60,633 nucleotides of DNA from the sequence record PP596835.1; one strand, written 5' to 3'. This document shows, in pieces, positions 46,742-53,843 of this stretch. The notes under the pieces are model-generated. The model saw only the letters and a program-made list of their open reading frames with translations. It made no database searches and was not told where the DNA came from. This stretch comes from Escherichia phage Dru_SM1. A program made the position numbers and the translations under genes. Numbering within the stretch: position 1 is the stretch's first letter; each line of letters starts with the position of its first letter.

Positions 46742-49124
<2,383 letters not shown>

Positions 49125-49125
49125 C

Positions 49126-49650
49126 TTATACACCCAATTTGTTACAACCATGGTTCTTGTGAAAATTGTAATCGGTTAATGCTTTACTTACAGCCATTTG
49201 TGCATCTTCAAAAGTATCGTATACTCCAAGATATTTTGAAGTCCCGTCAACGCCTATACGAGCTTGCCATTTATTAGTAGCTTTGTGAAATGTAACTCCA
49301 TTTACTCCAGAGGTATTATTGCGTTTCTTACTTTGATTTCGTCCATTTTCTTTGTGAGTAACAAGACGCAAGTTTTCAATGCGGTCGTCGTAACGAACAT
49401 GATTAATATGGTCAATCTCATACCCTTCGGGAATGGGTCCATTATGCATTTCCCATACTATACGTGAACGACGATATAGTTTACCGTTAAGGGTAATACG
49501 AACATATCCTTTATCTGTAAGCGTACCCGCAACGCAACCTTCTTTCGCTCTTGCGCCCATATCTTTCTTCCAATACAACACTCCTTCATTATATTGGAAT
49601 ATCACCGCCCATTGTGGGAAAGCTTTAATTTCAGCGGGAAACAGTTCCAT
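49126..49650 (-). CDS. HNH homing endonuclease
   Basis: 174-aa ORF; HNH motif IDHINHVRYDDRIENLRL; first 16 residues resemble the primase N-terminus. Confidence 0.7.
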   Translation of the reverse strand: MELFPAEIKAFPQWAVIFQYNEGVLYWKKDMGARAKEGCVAGTLTDKGYVRITLNGKLYRRSRIVWEMHNGPIPEGYEIDHINHVRYDDRIENLRLVTHKENGRNQSKKRNNTSGVNGVTFHKATNKWQARIGVDGTSKYLGVYDTFEDAQMAVSKALTDYNFHKNHGCNKLGV

Positions 49651-49656
49651 ATTTAA

Positions 49657-49860
49657 TTAAGACCTCCGACGCTTATCGCCTTGCATCTTTTCCAGGACGG
49701 GTTCTGCCAATGAACGTTTATAGATGTACACGCTACCGATTTTAATAGCGCCGGGAATGCATTCGCGCATTCTGGAGAGCTTAAATTTTGAAATACCGAA
49801 CTGGTTTTCAATTTCGGTAGTTGTTATATAGTTGTGATTAAATTCTTCGACGTGGGTCAT
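49657..49860 (-). CDS. small DNA-binding protein (helix-turn-helix, excisionase/AlpA-like)
   Basis: 67-aa basic ORF near the start of the leftward block; HTH-like segment. Confidence 0.45.
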   Translation of the reverse strand: MTHVEEFNHNYITTTEIENQFGISKFKLSRMRECIPGAIKIGSVYIYKRSLAEPVLEKMQGDKRRRS

Positions 49861-49921
49861 AGCTCCTCCTTTGTCCGCACACTATACACAGATAAGAGGA
49901 GCCATTGCAATGCGTTTTGCA

Positions 49922-50665
49922 TTATTGGATTTCAGTTCTTTGGTACTGCATCACGATCTGAAATACCTGATCCGGTGTTCGCCCTTCGCGCAACTGTATC
50001 ATCCATTCATCCAACTGTTCTAAACGTGCTTGAGCTTCGTTAATGTCCTTAAACGGCTGCCATGATACGGGGACACAGCCATTAACACTTAGAGTAATTG
50101 ATGTAGTCCCGTTTTCATACACTCTAAGCGCGCAAGTCGGCCAAACGCCACGCTTATCCCATACAGGCGGGTTTTCTACCGATTTATAAGTGCTATACCA
50201 TTTATTGCGAAGCGATGTTCTTTCCTTATCCGTCAACGGAGCGCCTTTAACCCTTTCATGCTCCTCCAGCCAAGCTTTAAATTTTGGGTCCGGTTTGCGC
50301 CCAACTTTTCCACCTTTCCCTTTCGCATGTTCTTTAAAAGCTTGTTCATATGGATCATTGCCATGCGATTTGTGCCAGTTAAACATACCATCATAACGTG
50401 TTATCTCTTTAGCATCCAACTCGCGTCCCAACTTATTGCTTACCCATGCGCGGAAAGCGGCTCGCTCTGGACCCCATTTACCCGTTTTCTGTCTTGTAGC
50501 TTTTTTAACAGGCTGCTCCACATCTTCGTTGAAGTAATTTTCTACCATTGCAAGCGCCTGGCTTTTAGATGGTGCACCGCGCAACCGTGAGCACTCCTGG
50601 ACGATCCATGCAGCGAAGCACAACTCCTTAACCACAGTTTTAGATGCAATCATTTCTTCACTCAT
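49922..50665 (-). CDS. hypothetical protein (first gene of leftward block)
   Basis: 247-aa Lys-rich ORF next to the control region. Confidence 0.45.
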   Translation of the reverse strand: MSEEMIASKTVVKELCFAAWIVQECSRLRGAPSKSQALAMVENYFNEDVEQPVKKATRQKTGKWGPERAAFRAWVSNKLGRELDAKEITRYDGMFNWHKSHGNDPYEQAFKEHAKGKGGKVGRKPDPKFKAWLEEHERVKGAPLTDKERTSLRNKWYSTYKSVENPPVWDKRGVWPTCALRVYENGTTSITLSVNGCVPVSWQPFKDINEAQARLEQLDEWMIQLREGRTPDQVFQIVMQYQRTEIQ

Positions 50666-50760
50666 AATAACACTCCTCGTTATAAGAATAGATTTAAGCC
50701 GTCCACAAAACTTTTACAGTATCGCAAAACCTTTAAAAGTTACGTTATAAGGGAATTATA

Positions 50761-51000
50761 TTAAAAGATAGTGCTAGTGGCAATTATAGTGGCATTACTG
50801 CGTATAGTGCGCCGTTGCTGGCTTTCAATGTCCTGCCACTATAACTGCACAAACGGCTATCACTACTATTTTGTATAAAGTATAAATTTTTGGGTTTTGC
50901 GTTACGTATAAATACCCCCTTTAAACTAAGAATTATAGTAGTAGTGGATAAACATAGTGAAATGCCACTATCACTACTTACTATAATTAATTTAATAAAA
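50761..51000. promoter_or_regulatory. iteron/operator-like repeat cluster (core TATAGTG / CACTAT, at least 8 copies in both orientations)
   Basis: 10-bp inverted repeat TATAGTGGCA (50785-50794) / TGCCACTATA (50833-50842); three direct ATAGTG copies at 17-19-bp spacing; TATCACTACT twice. Confidence 0.5.
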
Positions 51001-51290
51001 AATTGGGGTATCTGTACCAAAAACCTAAAACTTTCAGTCAACAGACTAAAAACGGATAGAAACTAAAAGTTAATAATTAATACCATAAATATATATAAAA
51101 TAAGGTTTTATTAGTAATTTATATAGTACCTATTGGTATTAGTTGACGTTCGCAAGGTCTGCTACAAAAAATCACAAAACTCACAAAAAGTGAAAGTTTG
51201 CAAGTCATGGCAAAATTGTTAATAGAATATAGTGTATGGATATACAGTATTATTCCAGATTCCGGAATAATTGGAATAATGGAATAAATT
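51001..51290. other. AT-rich non-coding region (candidate DNA unwinding element / divergent promoters)
   Basis: ~290 bp ORF-free and strongly AT-rich, with short direct repeats (TCACAAAA x2, GGAATAAT x3); between the two divergent gene blocks. Confidence 0.4.
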
Positions 51291-51456
51291 ATTGAACTAT
51301 TGTGATCGGAAGGTATATCAAGCTATAATCTGCGTTAAGGCAGAGAGGAGTTATTGCAGAGGTCCGGTAACACGGGCAGCCTCCACAGCAATAACAAGTC
51401 TACAGGAGGCTGTCTTACGTAGCGCGCGCAAAATTAAACTATTGTTTGGAGGGAAT

Positions 51457-51786
51457 ATGAGTCTTGAATGGGATTATAAAAAACACTGGTGGAAGAAAGA
51501 GCCAAAATGGAATAAATATTTTGAGTATAAGGATGGAGATTTATTCTGGAAGAAGGACTTTAAGAAATACGGCATATCCAAAGGTGATGAAGTTAAAGAT
51601 GTTTGTGCTCCGCATCTTCATTGTAAAATTTGCTTGGCACCTATTTGCCAAGGTGAAAACCGTAAAGTCTTAAGGGCTCGTGTCGTTTATGAAATGTTCC
51701 ACGGTCCACAGGGTAAAGGAGCTGTCTTCGGGAAGTATATCAACGACCCGAAGAATGACATGATTGAAAATCTTTATCTAAAATAG
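51457..51786 (+). CDS. degenerate HNH endonuclease-like protein
   Basis: ORF 51292-51786; likely start ATG 51457 (GGAGGG RBS); N-terminus matches the intact HNH genes (FEYKDGDLFWKK) but the HNH region is altered (INDPKNDMIENLYLK instead of IDHI(D/N)H...RIENLRL) and the C-terminal domain is missing. Confidence 0.4.
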   Translation: MSLEWDYKKHWWKKEPKWNKYFEYKDGDLFWKKDFKKYGISKGDEVKDVCAPHLHCKICLAPICQGENRKVLRARVVYEMFHGPQGKGAVFGKYINDPKNDMIENLYLK

Positions 51787-51817
51787 GGCTCCCGCAGAAG
51801 CCCGTTGGTTGATGTGG

Positions 51818-51952
51818 TTATAGAACTCGCCAGTTAGTGATTAAGCCTTGCGAGAGCATAAACTTGCCAGTCTGCTCCGCGTCGTAGCGGTTATTGAAAA
51901 CATCTTCTACTTCCCAATCGCTACCAAAATATTTTATTTCTAAAGTGAACAT
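51818..51952 (-). CDS. small hypothetical protein (44 aa)
   Basis: ATG 51952 with AAGGAG RBS at 7-nt spacing; below the ORF-track size cutoff. Confidence 0.3.
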   Translation of the reverse strand: MFTLEIKYFGSDWEVEDVFNNRYDAEQTGKFMLSQGLITNWRVL

Positions 51953-52005
51953 AATAAACTCCTTTGCTGTTAATGATATAATTATAGGTCAGCTTGAAGG
52001 AAAGA

Positions 52006-52620
52006 TCAAGCATCTAAACCATTATATTTGCGCCAGGCGTAGAACTGAATGGCTACCGTTGTTCCGTTGTAAGAAGGCATTGCTGCTTTCATTTCTTTCA
52101 GCTCCGGCGTGCGGCCCAGTTCCTTCAGAAGCTTGTCACCCATTGCCCACACTTCGGCAGTTTTTCCTTTGAGCGGCTTGCGAGCGCCATTTTTGAAATC
52201 GCAGCGAGCAGTTTTTACATCCTGTTTTGGCGCGGCAGCTTTTGGCTCTTCAATTTTGATTTCAGAAACCTGCGTGGCAGCTTTTGCATGTTTCATATCT
52301 TTCTCTTCCTCCTGCTCCAAAGCTTCGAGGCAGCTTTTGACAATTTCCGGATTTACCATCGGGCGCAGTACCGAGACGCTGGAAGCTGGCGCGGCGGTCG
52401 GTGCCGGGACTTTCTGCTCCGGCTGTTGCGCTTTTTTATGGTCGCGCAGTACCTGAAGCACTTCCTTCTCGACGATGTAAAAACCAATCTCGTCCTGATG
52501 GATTAACTGTTCGTGTGCGTCGCGTGCAACCTGACCCCAGCGAGTCTTAAGGGCACGGCGTGCATTCGTTTTCATGGTGTAGCGCATTTTGTCCTGTTCG
52601 CGGTGAGTTACTTTAGACAT
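52006..52620 (-). CDS. hypothetical protein
   Basis: ORF 52006-52665; likely start ATG 52620 with AAAGGAG RBS; Ala/Pro/Lys-rich central linker. Confidence 0.45.
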   Translation of the reverse strand: MSKVTHREQDKMRYTMKTNARRALKTRWGQVARDAHEQLIHQDEIGFYIVEKEVLQVLRDHKKAQQPEQKVPAPTAAPASSVSVLRPMVNPEIVKSCLEALEQEEEKDMKHAKAATQVSEIKIEEPKAAAPKQDVKTARCDFKNGARKPLKGKTAEVWAMGDKLLKELGRTPELKEMKAAMPSYNGTTVAIQFYAWRKYNGLDA

Positions 52621-52693
52621 GGTATAGCTCCTTTCGTTAATATTAGTTTGCTTATTACTGCCCACCGTAATGATGAGCAGTGTATAAGAAAAC

Positions 52694-52942
52694 TTATTGC
52701 ACGATTGCTACGAAATCGGCGGTTGCGATATCCATGCTTGCGAAAGCATGGATGCCATAGTCGGTGTCGTTTTCGGCGTTAAACGCTTTGAGGAACTGCT
52801 GTACTGCCGCTTTATGGTTAAGCGTTACGTCGATAGCATAGTCCCAGCTATAGACTTTGCGCTTGCCAAAACCTTTAACTGCAATGCGTGCGCCTTTGGT
52901 GTTAGTTGGTGCCAAAAATTTGGTGATGATAGAAGTAGCCAT
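52694..52942 (-). CDS. hypothetical protein
   Basis: 82-aa ORF. Confidence 0.4.
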   Translation of the reverse strand: MATSIITKFLAPTNTKGARIAVKGFGKRKVYSWDYAIDVTLNHKAAVQQFLKAFNAENDTDYGIHAFASMDIATADFVAIVQ

Positions 52943-53013
52943 AATGTAATCCTCTTTTTGTTTAAGTTGACTTATTATTGCCCAGTCAGATCAACTAGGC
53001 AAGATATAAATCA

Positions 53014-53177
53014 ACTATTTTCGCTTACATAATCCAGTGCAGCTTCGAGGAAATAAAATTCTTCCTGCTTATATAAGCTGATTGCCCACTCCAGCTGAGC
53101 GCGGGTAAGGTGGCGATATTTGTTGTCGATGCAGTAGCTGCGACCGAAGTACATAATAGTGAAGTATGAGCTGGACA
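53014..53177 (-). CDS. small hypothetical protein (54 aa)
   Basis: ATG 53177 with GGAGG RBS; more protein-like than the overlapping 72-aa ORF in another frame. Confidence 0.3.
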
Positions 53178-53396
53178 TAACGCGCCTCCAAGTGTGGTTA
53201 AGAAGTAGTACCGTGTTGCTATGGGTACATAATAGCGATGCATTGTGATATTGAATAGGCCAAACGTGCTATTTTGATATTGTTTTGCATCTAGTGAAAA
53301 TTATGCTTGCCCTGCATGTTTAGCACTAATGGCCTAACTAACATCACATCATCTGGAGTATTCGCGCAGGCGTACACATGCTTATAAGGTGGTGCC

Positions 53397-53510
53397 GGAT
53401 CGACCAGGTGGGAGCGGTGCACAGGATCGACCAGGGGCATCCGGCGCCCTGCGTGTGCGGAGCCTACCAGGTGGGAGCAGCTCCTGCGTGTGCCGGAAAT
53501 ACCAGGTGCG
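53397..53510. repeat. GC-rich degenerate direct repeats (ACCAGGTGGGAGC x2, GATCGACCAGG x2, CTGCGTGTGC x2)
   Basis: four ACCAGG(T)G units ~26-37 bp apart in a GC-rich island within a divergent intergenic region. Confidence 0.5.
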
Positions 53511-53562
53511 CGCGAGCCCATGCACTTTACAAAATATTTTTATAAAAAGTGCAAAAAGGTGT

Positions 53563-53590
53563 AGACATATGATCGGTCTAGCACTACTAT
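53563..53590 (+). promoter_or_regulatory. candidate promoter for the rightward small genes (TAGACA-N16-TACTAT)
   Basis: -35/-10-like hexamers ~50 nt upstream of the ATG at 53640; weak. Confidence 0.25.
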
Positions 53591-53639
53591 ATACACATAC
53601 CGCAAGGGTACTACAAATTAACTCAAAGGGGTTTACATC

Positions 53640-53843
53640 ATGTCTATTCGTAACGTTATCTGTGTAATGGTTGCAAACAATAATTTTGGTTTCGTAGAAG
53701 GTGCAGAGTATAAAATGGATCTTAAAACTCGTTGCATTATTAAAGGTGAAGAGGAATGGCGTGCAGTAGTAGAAGATTGCGGAGATATCTACATCTATAG
53801 TTCTGATACAATGAAAACTATCGCTGTCTTCGAATTTAACTAA
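53640..53843 (+). CDS. hypothetical protein
   Basis: 67-aa ORF with RBS. Confidence 0.4.
   Translation: MSIRNVICVMVANNNFGFVEGAEYKMDLKTRCIIKGEEEWRAVVEDCGDIYIYSSDTMKTIAVFEFN

Follow-up and report, generated by a model that had tools for sequence, protein, structure and literature searches.

A candidate replication origin and control region upstream of the replication operon of the Seuratvirus Escherichia phage Dru_SM1

Escherichia phage Dru_SM1 (sequence record PP596835.1; the whole stretch of 60,633 nucleotides is here called the window) has a gap of 791 bp free of open reading frames (ORFs) at 50666-51456. We propose, with a probability of roughly 0.55, that this gap is a composite element built in two layers, an origin of replication combined with the control region of the replication operon. 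Layer 1 would be a minimal origin at 51017-51190, an unwinding element of 80-90% AT flanked by two plus three repeats of the CAAAAC type. The hypervariable C-terminal part of a primase-helicase would read these flank repeats; the enzyme would load itself there, melt the DNA and prime synthesis, much like the Rep and Pri-Rep proteins of staphylococcal pathogenicity islands at their own origins. Layer 2, at 50755-50980, would be a lineage-specific cassette: the word (A)TAGTG(G) is arranged there in two head-to-head arrays, to which a 247-aa protein would bind in multiple copies. The bound protein would repress its own promoter and may also organise, shape or license the adjoining origin, comparable to the action of plasmid Rep proteins on iterons overlapping their promoters. 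A conserved rightward promoter at 51300-51329 may add transcriptional activation. The identity of the binder, the start of replication at this place and the autoregulation are all things that we infer. That an origin lies here at all appears somewhat more probable than that it does not.

The first layer is best seen in the physical properties of the DNA. A preliminary description of this region had pointed to an AT-rich tract, and the tract is indeed exceptional: 51000-51290 is 72.5% AT, as compared to 55.7% for the genome, and it holds the genome's least stable duplex. At a length of 60 bp this is 51064-51124 (90% AT, z = 4.5), and the least stable windows of 100, 150 and 300 bp are also found here. 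Three features make up the core:

51044-51144: AT-rich centre, candidate DNA unwinding element, defined by its melting minimum and its conservation.
51017-51042, plus strand: left core flank, two type-A repeats (CCAAAAAC and CTAAAAC) followed by the invariant block AAACTTTCAGTCAAC.
51164-51190, plus strand: right core flank, three tandem type-A repeats, ACAAAAAAT, CACAAAACT and CACAAAAAG.

Within the centre, the block 51083-51141 is nearly invariant across the genus, being 88-95% identical to its counterparts in STP-SP5, Seurat, Skure and the contig L043. For comparison, identities are 83-96% for the best-conserved coding sequence in the vicinity and about 75% for the gene of a 67-aa protein. 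The non-coding block is conserved at least as well as the best coding DNA in its neighbourhood.

The short direct repeats that had been reported from the AT-rich tract are present. They belong to two families, CRCAAAA and GGAATAA, and both are distinct from the TAGTG words discussed below. CRCAAAA occurs five times in the tract, 0.2 copies being expected. The copies of the CAAAAC type (two in the left flank, three in the right) share one orientation, unlike the opposed repeats of certain satellite origins (see below). When the relatives are aligned on an invariant 19-mer, AAATATATATAAAATAAGG (window position 51087), the flanks can be compared position by position. Phages with a type-B primase have ATAAAC in place of CAAAAC at the same positions of the left flank, and TATAAAC, TATAAAT and CATAAAC at the homologous positions of the right flank. 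The type-C contig L043 has ATAAAAT there. The types are defined by the C-terminal part of the primase-helicase:

46788-49151, minus strand: 787-aa primase-polymerase fused to a DUF3987 helicase (Pfam and PHROG assignments).
C-terminal type A: flank repeat CAAAA[AC], 4-5 copies, 6 genomes.
C-terminal type B: flank repeat ATAAAC, 5-6 copies, 6 genomes.
C-terminal type C: flank repeat ATAAAAT, 4 copies, 1 genome.

In 13 out of 13 genomes the version of the flank repeat matches the type of the last 150 residues of the primase-helicase. The relative L046 is instructive, as it keeps a type-B primase together with ATAAAC flanks although its central AT-rich DNA differs. The tail is also the most divergent part of an otherwise conserved protein: compared to Seurat, the first 300 residues are 100% identical, the helicase is 58-82% identical and the last ~100 residues are 42-46% identical. 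In other work a helicase of the DUF3987 kind proved to have 5'-3' polarity and a small C-terminal domain (PMC11724360). Operator or iteron sites next to an unwinding element had been suggested before for this region, and this general layout fits everything that was computed here. The assignment of the iteron role to the TAGTG array has to be revised, since the flank repeats appear to be the better iteron candidate.

Neither DnaA boxes nor consensus sites for the integration host factor (IHF) were found in the region, which fits a phage initiator that loads itself.

The position of the gap in the genome is consistent with such a role. Dru_SM1 is an Escherichia coli siphophage of the genus Seuratvirus (Queuovirinae). 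The region 50600-51500 matches 34 phage records, of which all those shown are Seuratvirus; the closest one, Escherichia phage vB_EcoS_SA126VB, is 96% identical over this match. An ORF-free gap of 630-830 bp is found at the same place in every Seuratvirus examined. The preliminary description had called the gap ORF-free, which is correct, and about 600 bp long, which is too short. An 85-aa ORF within it is disrupted by a 1-bp indel in the 96%-identical SA126VB. The surrounding genes, apart from the primase-helicase gene already listed, are the following:

49922-50665, minus strand: 247-aa protein of an unnamed family, an orphan and the best candidate reader of the TAGTG arrays.
49657-49860, minus strand: 67-aa protein with a predicted winged-helix fold of the excisionase/MerR type.
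49126-49650, minus strand: inserted HNH-AP2 endonuclease (Pfam/PHROG assignment).
51457-51786, plus strand: truncated, inserted HNH-like gene of 109 aa, the sole plus-strand gene to the right of the gap.

Originally the gap was thought to separate a leftward block from rightward genes. This cannot be maintained. Because the only rightward gene is an insert and the conserved genes beyond it (51818-53178) are directed leftward again, the gap is the upstream region of the replication operon and not a point of divergence; the true divergence point is at 53179-53639. Measured from the primase-helicase gene, the gap is 1.5-4 kb upstream. On its downstream side this gene is followed by a gap of just 46 bp with a (TTTA)n run, a perfect repeat of 8.8 units at 46759-46793, directly past the primase stop codon and between convergent genes.

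The cumulative GC skew of the genome has its minimum at 50731, that is, within the gap. To its right, the leftward genes have skews between -0.04 and +0.12, with the exception of a 135-bp ORF at -0.15. To its left, the primase, HNH and 247-aa genes range from -0.12 to -0.21, and the short 67-aa gene has +0.05.

The second layer consists of the TAGTG words. In 50760-50990 the core TAGTG occurs 10 times; the mean of dinucleotide shuffles is 0.82, and not one of 5000 reached 10. For the larger region 50700-51290 the count is 11, as compared to a mean of 1.37 in shuffles preserving the dinucleotides (0/5000 reach 11), and ATAGTG occurs 7 times there versus 0.43 in shuffles (0/5000). All four copies of TAGTGGCA in the 60.6-kb genome fall into this region. 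The recurring unit is therefore best written TAGTG, usually extended to aTAGTGg. The copies of TATAGTG(G/C), at least eight by the count of the preliminary description, shrink to three (TATAGTG alone has four), and only the shorter core reaches 10-11. The arrangement is as follows:

50768-50865: cluster 1, plus-strand copies at 50769, 50775, 50787 and 50805 facing minus-strand copies at 50837 and 50861; it contains the 10-bp inverted repeat.
50866-50934: AT-rich spacer between the clusters, holding a 19-nucleotide direct repeat, TTTTGTATAAAGTATAAAT / TTTTGCGTTACGTATAAAT.
50935-50980: cluster 2, plus-strand copies at 50942 and 50955 facing minus-strand copies at 50966 and 50972.

Both clusters are thus head-to-head. 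The perfect 10-bp inverted repeat noticed earlier is TATAGTGGCA / TGCCACTATA at 50785-50794 and 50834-50843, and it grows to arms of 15 nucleotides with 93% complementarity. The three direct copies, previously given a spacing of 17-19 bp, are ATAGTG at 50768, 50786 and 50804, with a spacing of exactly 18 bp. That the sites keep a strict 6-bp register was considered and dropped: the register holds just for the plus-strand copies of cluster 1 (spacings of 6, 12 and 18 bp) and fails in cluster 2. Two further copies do not belong to the array. The one at 51228 is coincidental, since its segment is identical to that of L023, a Skure-type relative without an array. The TATAGTG at 49880 is the -10 element of a promoter whose conservation extends to phages that use other array words, Seurat having an identical copy.

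In the relatives the word differs, and the genomes can be sorted by it:

aTAGTGg: the window, SA126VB, Greed, KurtStettler, SeppeHuegi and L033.
ATAGGGt (TAGGG): Seurat, CAjan, slur01 and L043.
TAGGGgtA (TAGGGGTA type): L046.
No array: Skure, L023 and STP-SP5.

Position and orientation of the array are kept in the eight other array-bearing relatives examined, and those of cluster 1 are the same in Greed, KurtStettler, SeppeHuegi and L033. The word itself changes coherently at 8-15 sites per genome, a signature of co-evolution with one sequence-specific reader. We consider it very probable, on these patterns of sequence, that the arrays are specific protein-binding sites. A search of IMG/VR with the 19-mer yielded three true relatives and 27 unrelated viral contigs (among L013-L042), nearly all from one prophage family of ~40 kb. 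As the similarity ends at the 19-mer, these 27 are taken as chance matches of AT-rich DNA. In the distant phages Vid5 and PSTCR4 no informative equivalent of the region was found.

The relation of the arrays to transcription is considered next. All promoters mentioned here are consensus matches only. Three of them deserve to be listed:

50755-50783, minus strand: sigma-70-like promoter TTGCCA-17-TATAAT (11/12 consensus), facing the 247-aa gene.
49881-49910, minus strand: internal promoter TTGCAA-18-TATAGT, preceding the 67-aa and primase genes.
51300-51329, plus strand: sigma-70-like promoter TTGTGA-18-TATAAT, facing the inserted HNH-like gene.

The -10 element of the first one ends 90 bp upstream of the ATG of the 247-aa gene at 50665. 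The TAGTG copies at 50769 and 50775 cover its spacer and its -35 hexamer. Sites placed on the -35 element and the spacer have the geometry of an operator, which suggests autorepression of the 247-aa gene. The promoter is also present in SA126VB and Greed, and the array sites of Greed are placed on it in the same way; the -10 element of KurtStettler, SeppeHuegi and L033 is itself made by an array site. The GenBank record of SA126VB has a promoter annotated at the equivalent place, its sole annotation there. A second leftward promoter overlapping cluster 2 (50961-50932, 10/12) was rejected, as it is not conserved beyond SA126VB. The internal promoter is identical in Seurat, stands before the first gene in Skure, STP-SP5 and yong3, and is present in all lineages. 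The rightward promoter is the only promoter-like site that is conserved in position in every relative, and a homing-endonuclease gene has been inserted behind it in the window, in L046 and in STP-SP5.

The main rival explanation starts from here. The region may be purely a transcriptional control region: the arrays would be operators that time the replication operon, the AT-rich DNA would be an UP element, curved DNA or an insulator made by nucleoid proteins, and replication would start elsewhere. The overlap of array sites with sigma-70-like promoters speaks for it, as does the conserved rightward promoter that abuts the AT tract. A terminator-like hairpin at 51803-51786 (minus strand) sets the upstream leftward genes apart, and the Skure-type phages replicate without arrays. 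The match of the flank repeats to the C-terminal variant of the primase in all 13 genomes, however, is left without explanation. Further, the minima of duplex stability and GC skew coincide here and not at the point where transcription diverges (53.2-53.6 kb), and no leftward promoter except that of the 247-aa gene is conserved in position. Taken together, we regard an exclusively transcriptional role as doubtful, although it deserves to be taken more seriously than any of the other rivals.

Returning to the two-layered origin, the question arises which protein reads the TAGTG arrays. The best candidate is the 247-aa protein, and its assignment is slightly favoured by the distribution of genes and words. 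Its gene is absent exactly where the arrays are absent (Skure, L023 and STP-SP5), while these phages keep the 67-aa gene. In L043, which has TAGGG arrays, the 247-aa homologue is nearest to the Seurat type (55% versus 44-49%). L046 and Seurat, which differ in their array word, have 67-aa proteins that are 100% identical and 247-aa proteins that are 63% identical. The family is an orphan. Pfam gives no hits, the PHROGs contain it as one unnamed family, and an exhaustive HMMER search of 1.84 billion representative proteins yields just two clusters. A weak match to the colicin E9 DNase (E = 0.02) disappeared with a profile query, and this relationship was discarded. The C-terminus of the primase was also considered as a reader of TAGTG and rejected: type A occurs with TAGTG or with no arrays, type B with both TAGTG and TAGGG.

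The helix-turn-helix (HTH) protein at 49657-49860, i.e., the 67-aa protein, had been the binder suggested at the outset. Its predicted fold speaks for this. The AlphaFold2 model (predicted local distance difference test score, pLDDT, 86) is a beta-alpha-alpha-beta-beta fold, and the top Foldseek matches are RdfS, Tn916 Xis, BldC, RacA, Rpp and MerR, with template modelling scores of 0.55-0.65 and non-significant E values (> 0.1). The Pfam family HTH_17 does not match the window protein; the PSTCR4 homologue reaches 24.4 bits, the cutoff being 27. A small winged-helix fold of this kind, as predicted by the model, is shared with Xis, RdfS, BldC and RacA, and excisionase/MerR-like proteins such as BldC and Xis bind arrays of repeats cooperatively. 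Moreover, among the named phages the recognition helix separates TAGTG from TAGGG phages: it is SKFK[LM]SR in the window, Greed, KurtStettler, SeppeHuegi and L033, and SRYKLCR in Seurat and CAjan. Yet the protein fails the covariation test. L043 has the helix SKFKMSR and a wing identical to that of the window, but its arrays are TAGGG; L046 and Seurat, with their identical 67-aa proteins, have the different words TAGGGgtA and ATAGGGt. Also, the protein persists in Skure, STP-SP5, Vid5 and PSTCR4, none of which has such an array. The recognition surface of the 67-aa protein does not co-vary with the arrays. We thus think it unlikely that the 67-aa protein is the reader. Its gene is always directly upstream of the primase gene, a synteny that extends to Vid5 and PSTCR4.

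A small RNA or a micro-protein encoded by the conserved core, with the repeats as part of its promoter or its regulation, is very improbable. The block is strongly conserved and a conserved promoter adjoins it, but this promoter points away from the core. A search of both strands of 49500-53800 against Rfam gave nothing at E <= 1, and a composition of 80-90% AT leaves little scope for structure. The leader downstream of the promoter does not fold better than shuffled sequences (z = -0.58), and the ORFs of the gap are disrupted by indels in close relatives.

Packaging sites (pac) are usually found in or near terS. A pac site or another terminase recognition region is the least credible of all rivals: repeat arrays can serve terminase small subunits and one record (ECP2304) happens to start at the core, but the gap is ~47-51 kb from the record start in the records examined, the Seurat record was opened at terS, and the array word co-varies with a gene of the replication side. 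Seurat has been classified as a pac-headful phage by a comparison of TerL (PMC4342423).

Several observations weigh against the two-layered origin and have to be stated. All covariation is confounded by physical linkage and by the small number of independent events, perhaps two or three switches per system; the 247-aa gene adjoins the arrays, which makes linkage a confounder of its assignment in particular. No DNA-binding fold, nor any other fold or family, could be recognised in the 247-aa protein by sequence, profile or structure searches, and its model is moderately confident (pLDDT 71). The GC-skew signal is suggestive, but it comes from about 1.3 kb of short genes. The main AT-rich centre is not flanked by the TAGTG arrays, which are confined to one of its sides. 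At about +60 relative to the anchor, the other type-A phages keep an inverted copy of the core repeat, which in the window is degenerate or lost. Conserved AT-rich DNA in front of promoters has other possible roles as well: UP element, curved DNA or site for nucleoid proteins. Finally, since the Skure-type phages have neither the arrays nor the 247-aa gene, layer 2 is not essential for the firing of the origin.

The closest analogue of the proposed element is found in satellites. In the origins of staphylococcal pathogenicity islands (SaPI), an AT-rich region has iterons to either side, six to twelve penta- or hexanucleotides that are read by the C-terminal winged helix of Rep without a host initiator (PMC9371898). 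The points in common are these: short repeats surround an AT-rich region, a replication operon with a primase-helicase is nearby, and sites for host initiators are lacking. In SaPI the specificity, which differs between related elements, resides in the C-terminal domain of the helicase, and in the window and its relatives the tail variants match the flanks. The best PDB match of the window primase domain is PriRep5 of SaPI5 (7OLA, E = 1.3e-10), the match being limited to the primase domain. There are also differences. The SaPI origin lies directly downstream of rep, whereas the region in the window is upstream of the operon; the helicase is of the DUF3987 type and has no sequence match to SaPI Rep; and the flank repeats all point in one direction. 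There are, further, two repeat systems, of which the conspicuous one, TAGTG, follows a separate orphan protein and not the C-terminus of the helicase. And the window is a lytic phage, SaPI a satellite. The region is not a member of the SaPI-type origins as defined.

Other comparisons can be made with replicons of the iteron type. The plasmids of this class (P1 with RepA, F with RepE, pPS10 with RepA, RK2 with TrfA) have direct repeats of 17-22 bp that are read by a winged-helix Rep protein and are autoregulated. Here as there, the repeats adjoin an unwinding element and overlap the promoter of a neighbouring gene whose product is the proposed binder. In contrast, the word in the window has 5-8 bp and occurs in both orientations, the candidate binder has no recognisable winged helix, and DnaA boxes are missing. 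In phage P4 (ori/crr), the alpha protein is a fused primase-helicase, and its C-terminal domain recognises octamers that are repeated at the origin. Its primase, however, is of a different type that is not an archaeo-eukaryotic primase (AEP), and the P4 ori sits elsewhere relative to the gene.

A third family of repeats deserves a comment:

51249-51290: GGAATAA array, one inverted and three direct copies (4 copies versus 0.11 expected).

In Skure, L023 and STP-SP5 such arrays are found on both sides of the AT-rich centre; they are absent from SA126VB, Greed and Seurat. The window is a recombinant of an SA126VB-like left half and an L023-like right half (about 51170-51290); having imported a right segment of the Skure/L023 kind, it carries just the right-hand set. 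The Skure-type phages replace the array cassette by other DNA that has two-sided GGAATAA arrays, more CAAAAC-type repeats and small proteins. Among these is a stand-alone AP2-like protein, which shares 40% identity with the AP2 portion encoded in the HNH gene of the window. Candidate readers of GGAATAA are AP2 domains or the 67-aa protein of the Skure type.

The insertions around the gap have left traces of their own. The insertion point of the HNH-AP2 endonuclease gene (window 49122-49650, minus strand) coincides exactly with the 5' end of the primase gene. The first 16 codons of the endonuclease gene (MELFPAEIKAFPQWAV) are the same as the N-terminus of the uninterrupted primases of Seurat and STP-SP5, and the primase of the window has a diverged duplicate of them, MKLFPDEIKQYNQWAIA, with which it probably restarts (ATG at 49124). 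The arrangement resembles what a homing event would leave behind. On the other side, the 109-aa HNH-like gene (in the stretch 51291-51786) is a shortened copy of a 154-aa HNH_3 gene that L046 has at this place. The leaders of both genes share a hairpin (51350-51395) with one compensatory pair change (AGAGG/CCTCC versus AGCGG/CCGCC); the folding energy is not significant (z = -0.58). A 13-nucleotide direct repeat, at 51291 and 51433, brackets the rightward promoter and the leader. Immediately after the conserved rightward -10 element, at 51330-51345 and the homologous position of the relatives, three differing sequences are found, CTGCgttaagGCAG, CGCttaatcGCG and CGCcataaGCG. Read by eye, each of them forms a hairpin of 3-4 bp with a loop of 5-6 nucleotides, which may indicate a conserved hairpin at the 5' end of the transcript.

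Farther to the right, the divergent intergenic region 53179-53639 contains a GC-rich island with all four genomic copies of ACCAGG(T/G)G (53403-53508), all direct and 27-36 bp apart. They are a second candidate array of binding sites.

The chemistry of the DNA may add another aspect. The strongest array sites, the four copies of TAGTGGCA (window 50775-50782, 50787-50794, 50834-50841 and 50963-50970), contain GGC, and others contain GA. In the related phage CAjan, the targets at which DpdA inserts 7-deazaguanine are reported to be GGC, GA and GGT (PMC10484667). As many array sites contain one of these motifs, they are probably modified in virion DNA. The modification sits in the major groove, so that binding could discriminate modified from unmodified DNA. 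One may go farther and imagine that the genus-restricted 247-aa family reads words of 5 bp (TAGTG, TAGGG, TAGGGG), that single-base switches of its specificity co-evolved with 8-15 sites per genome, and that the arrays are a swappable "licensing" cassette beside a minimal origin that is separately specified by the tail of the primase-helicase. Binding could then tell modified parental from unmodified nascent DNA and thereby time the firing of the origin or a switch in the mode of replication. This extended scheme is speculative and, as a whole, improbable.

In the literature searched, neither an origin nor these repeats are described for Seuratvirus, nor is the replication start of the Queuovirinae. 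The kind of element is familiar. The novelty lies in its two tiers, in the orphan protein that would act as a separate reader and in a natural series of variants that differ in specificity. Queuovirinae are common isolates from E. coli and Salmonella, are represented in the BASEL reference collection and are candidates for therapy. For these phages the analysis yields a precise candidate origin of about 180 bp and predictions of which part of which protein reads which repeat. The three primase tails with their three flank words, together with the array words (at least three), are natural specificity variants suited to swaps, and the orphan 247-aa family emerges as a new family of proteins that probably bind DNA sequence-specifically. 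Should the origin be confirmed, the region could be put to use as a phage-dependent replicon when these phages are engineered. The region also illustrates the reshuffling of replication modules in lytic phages.

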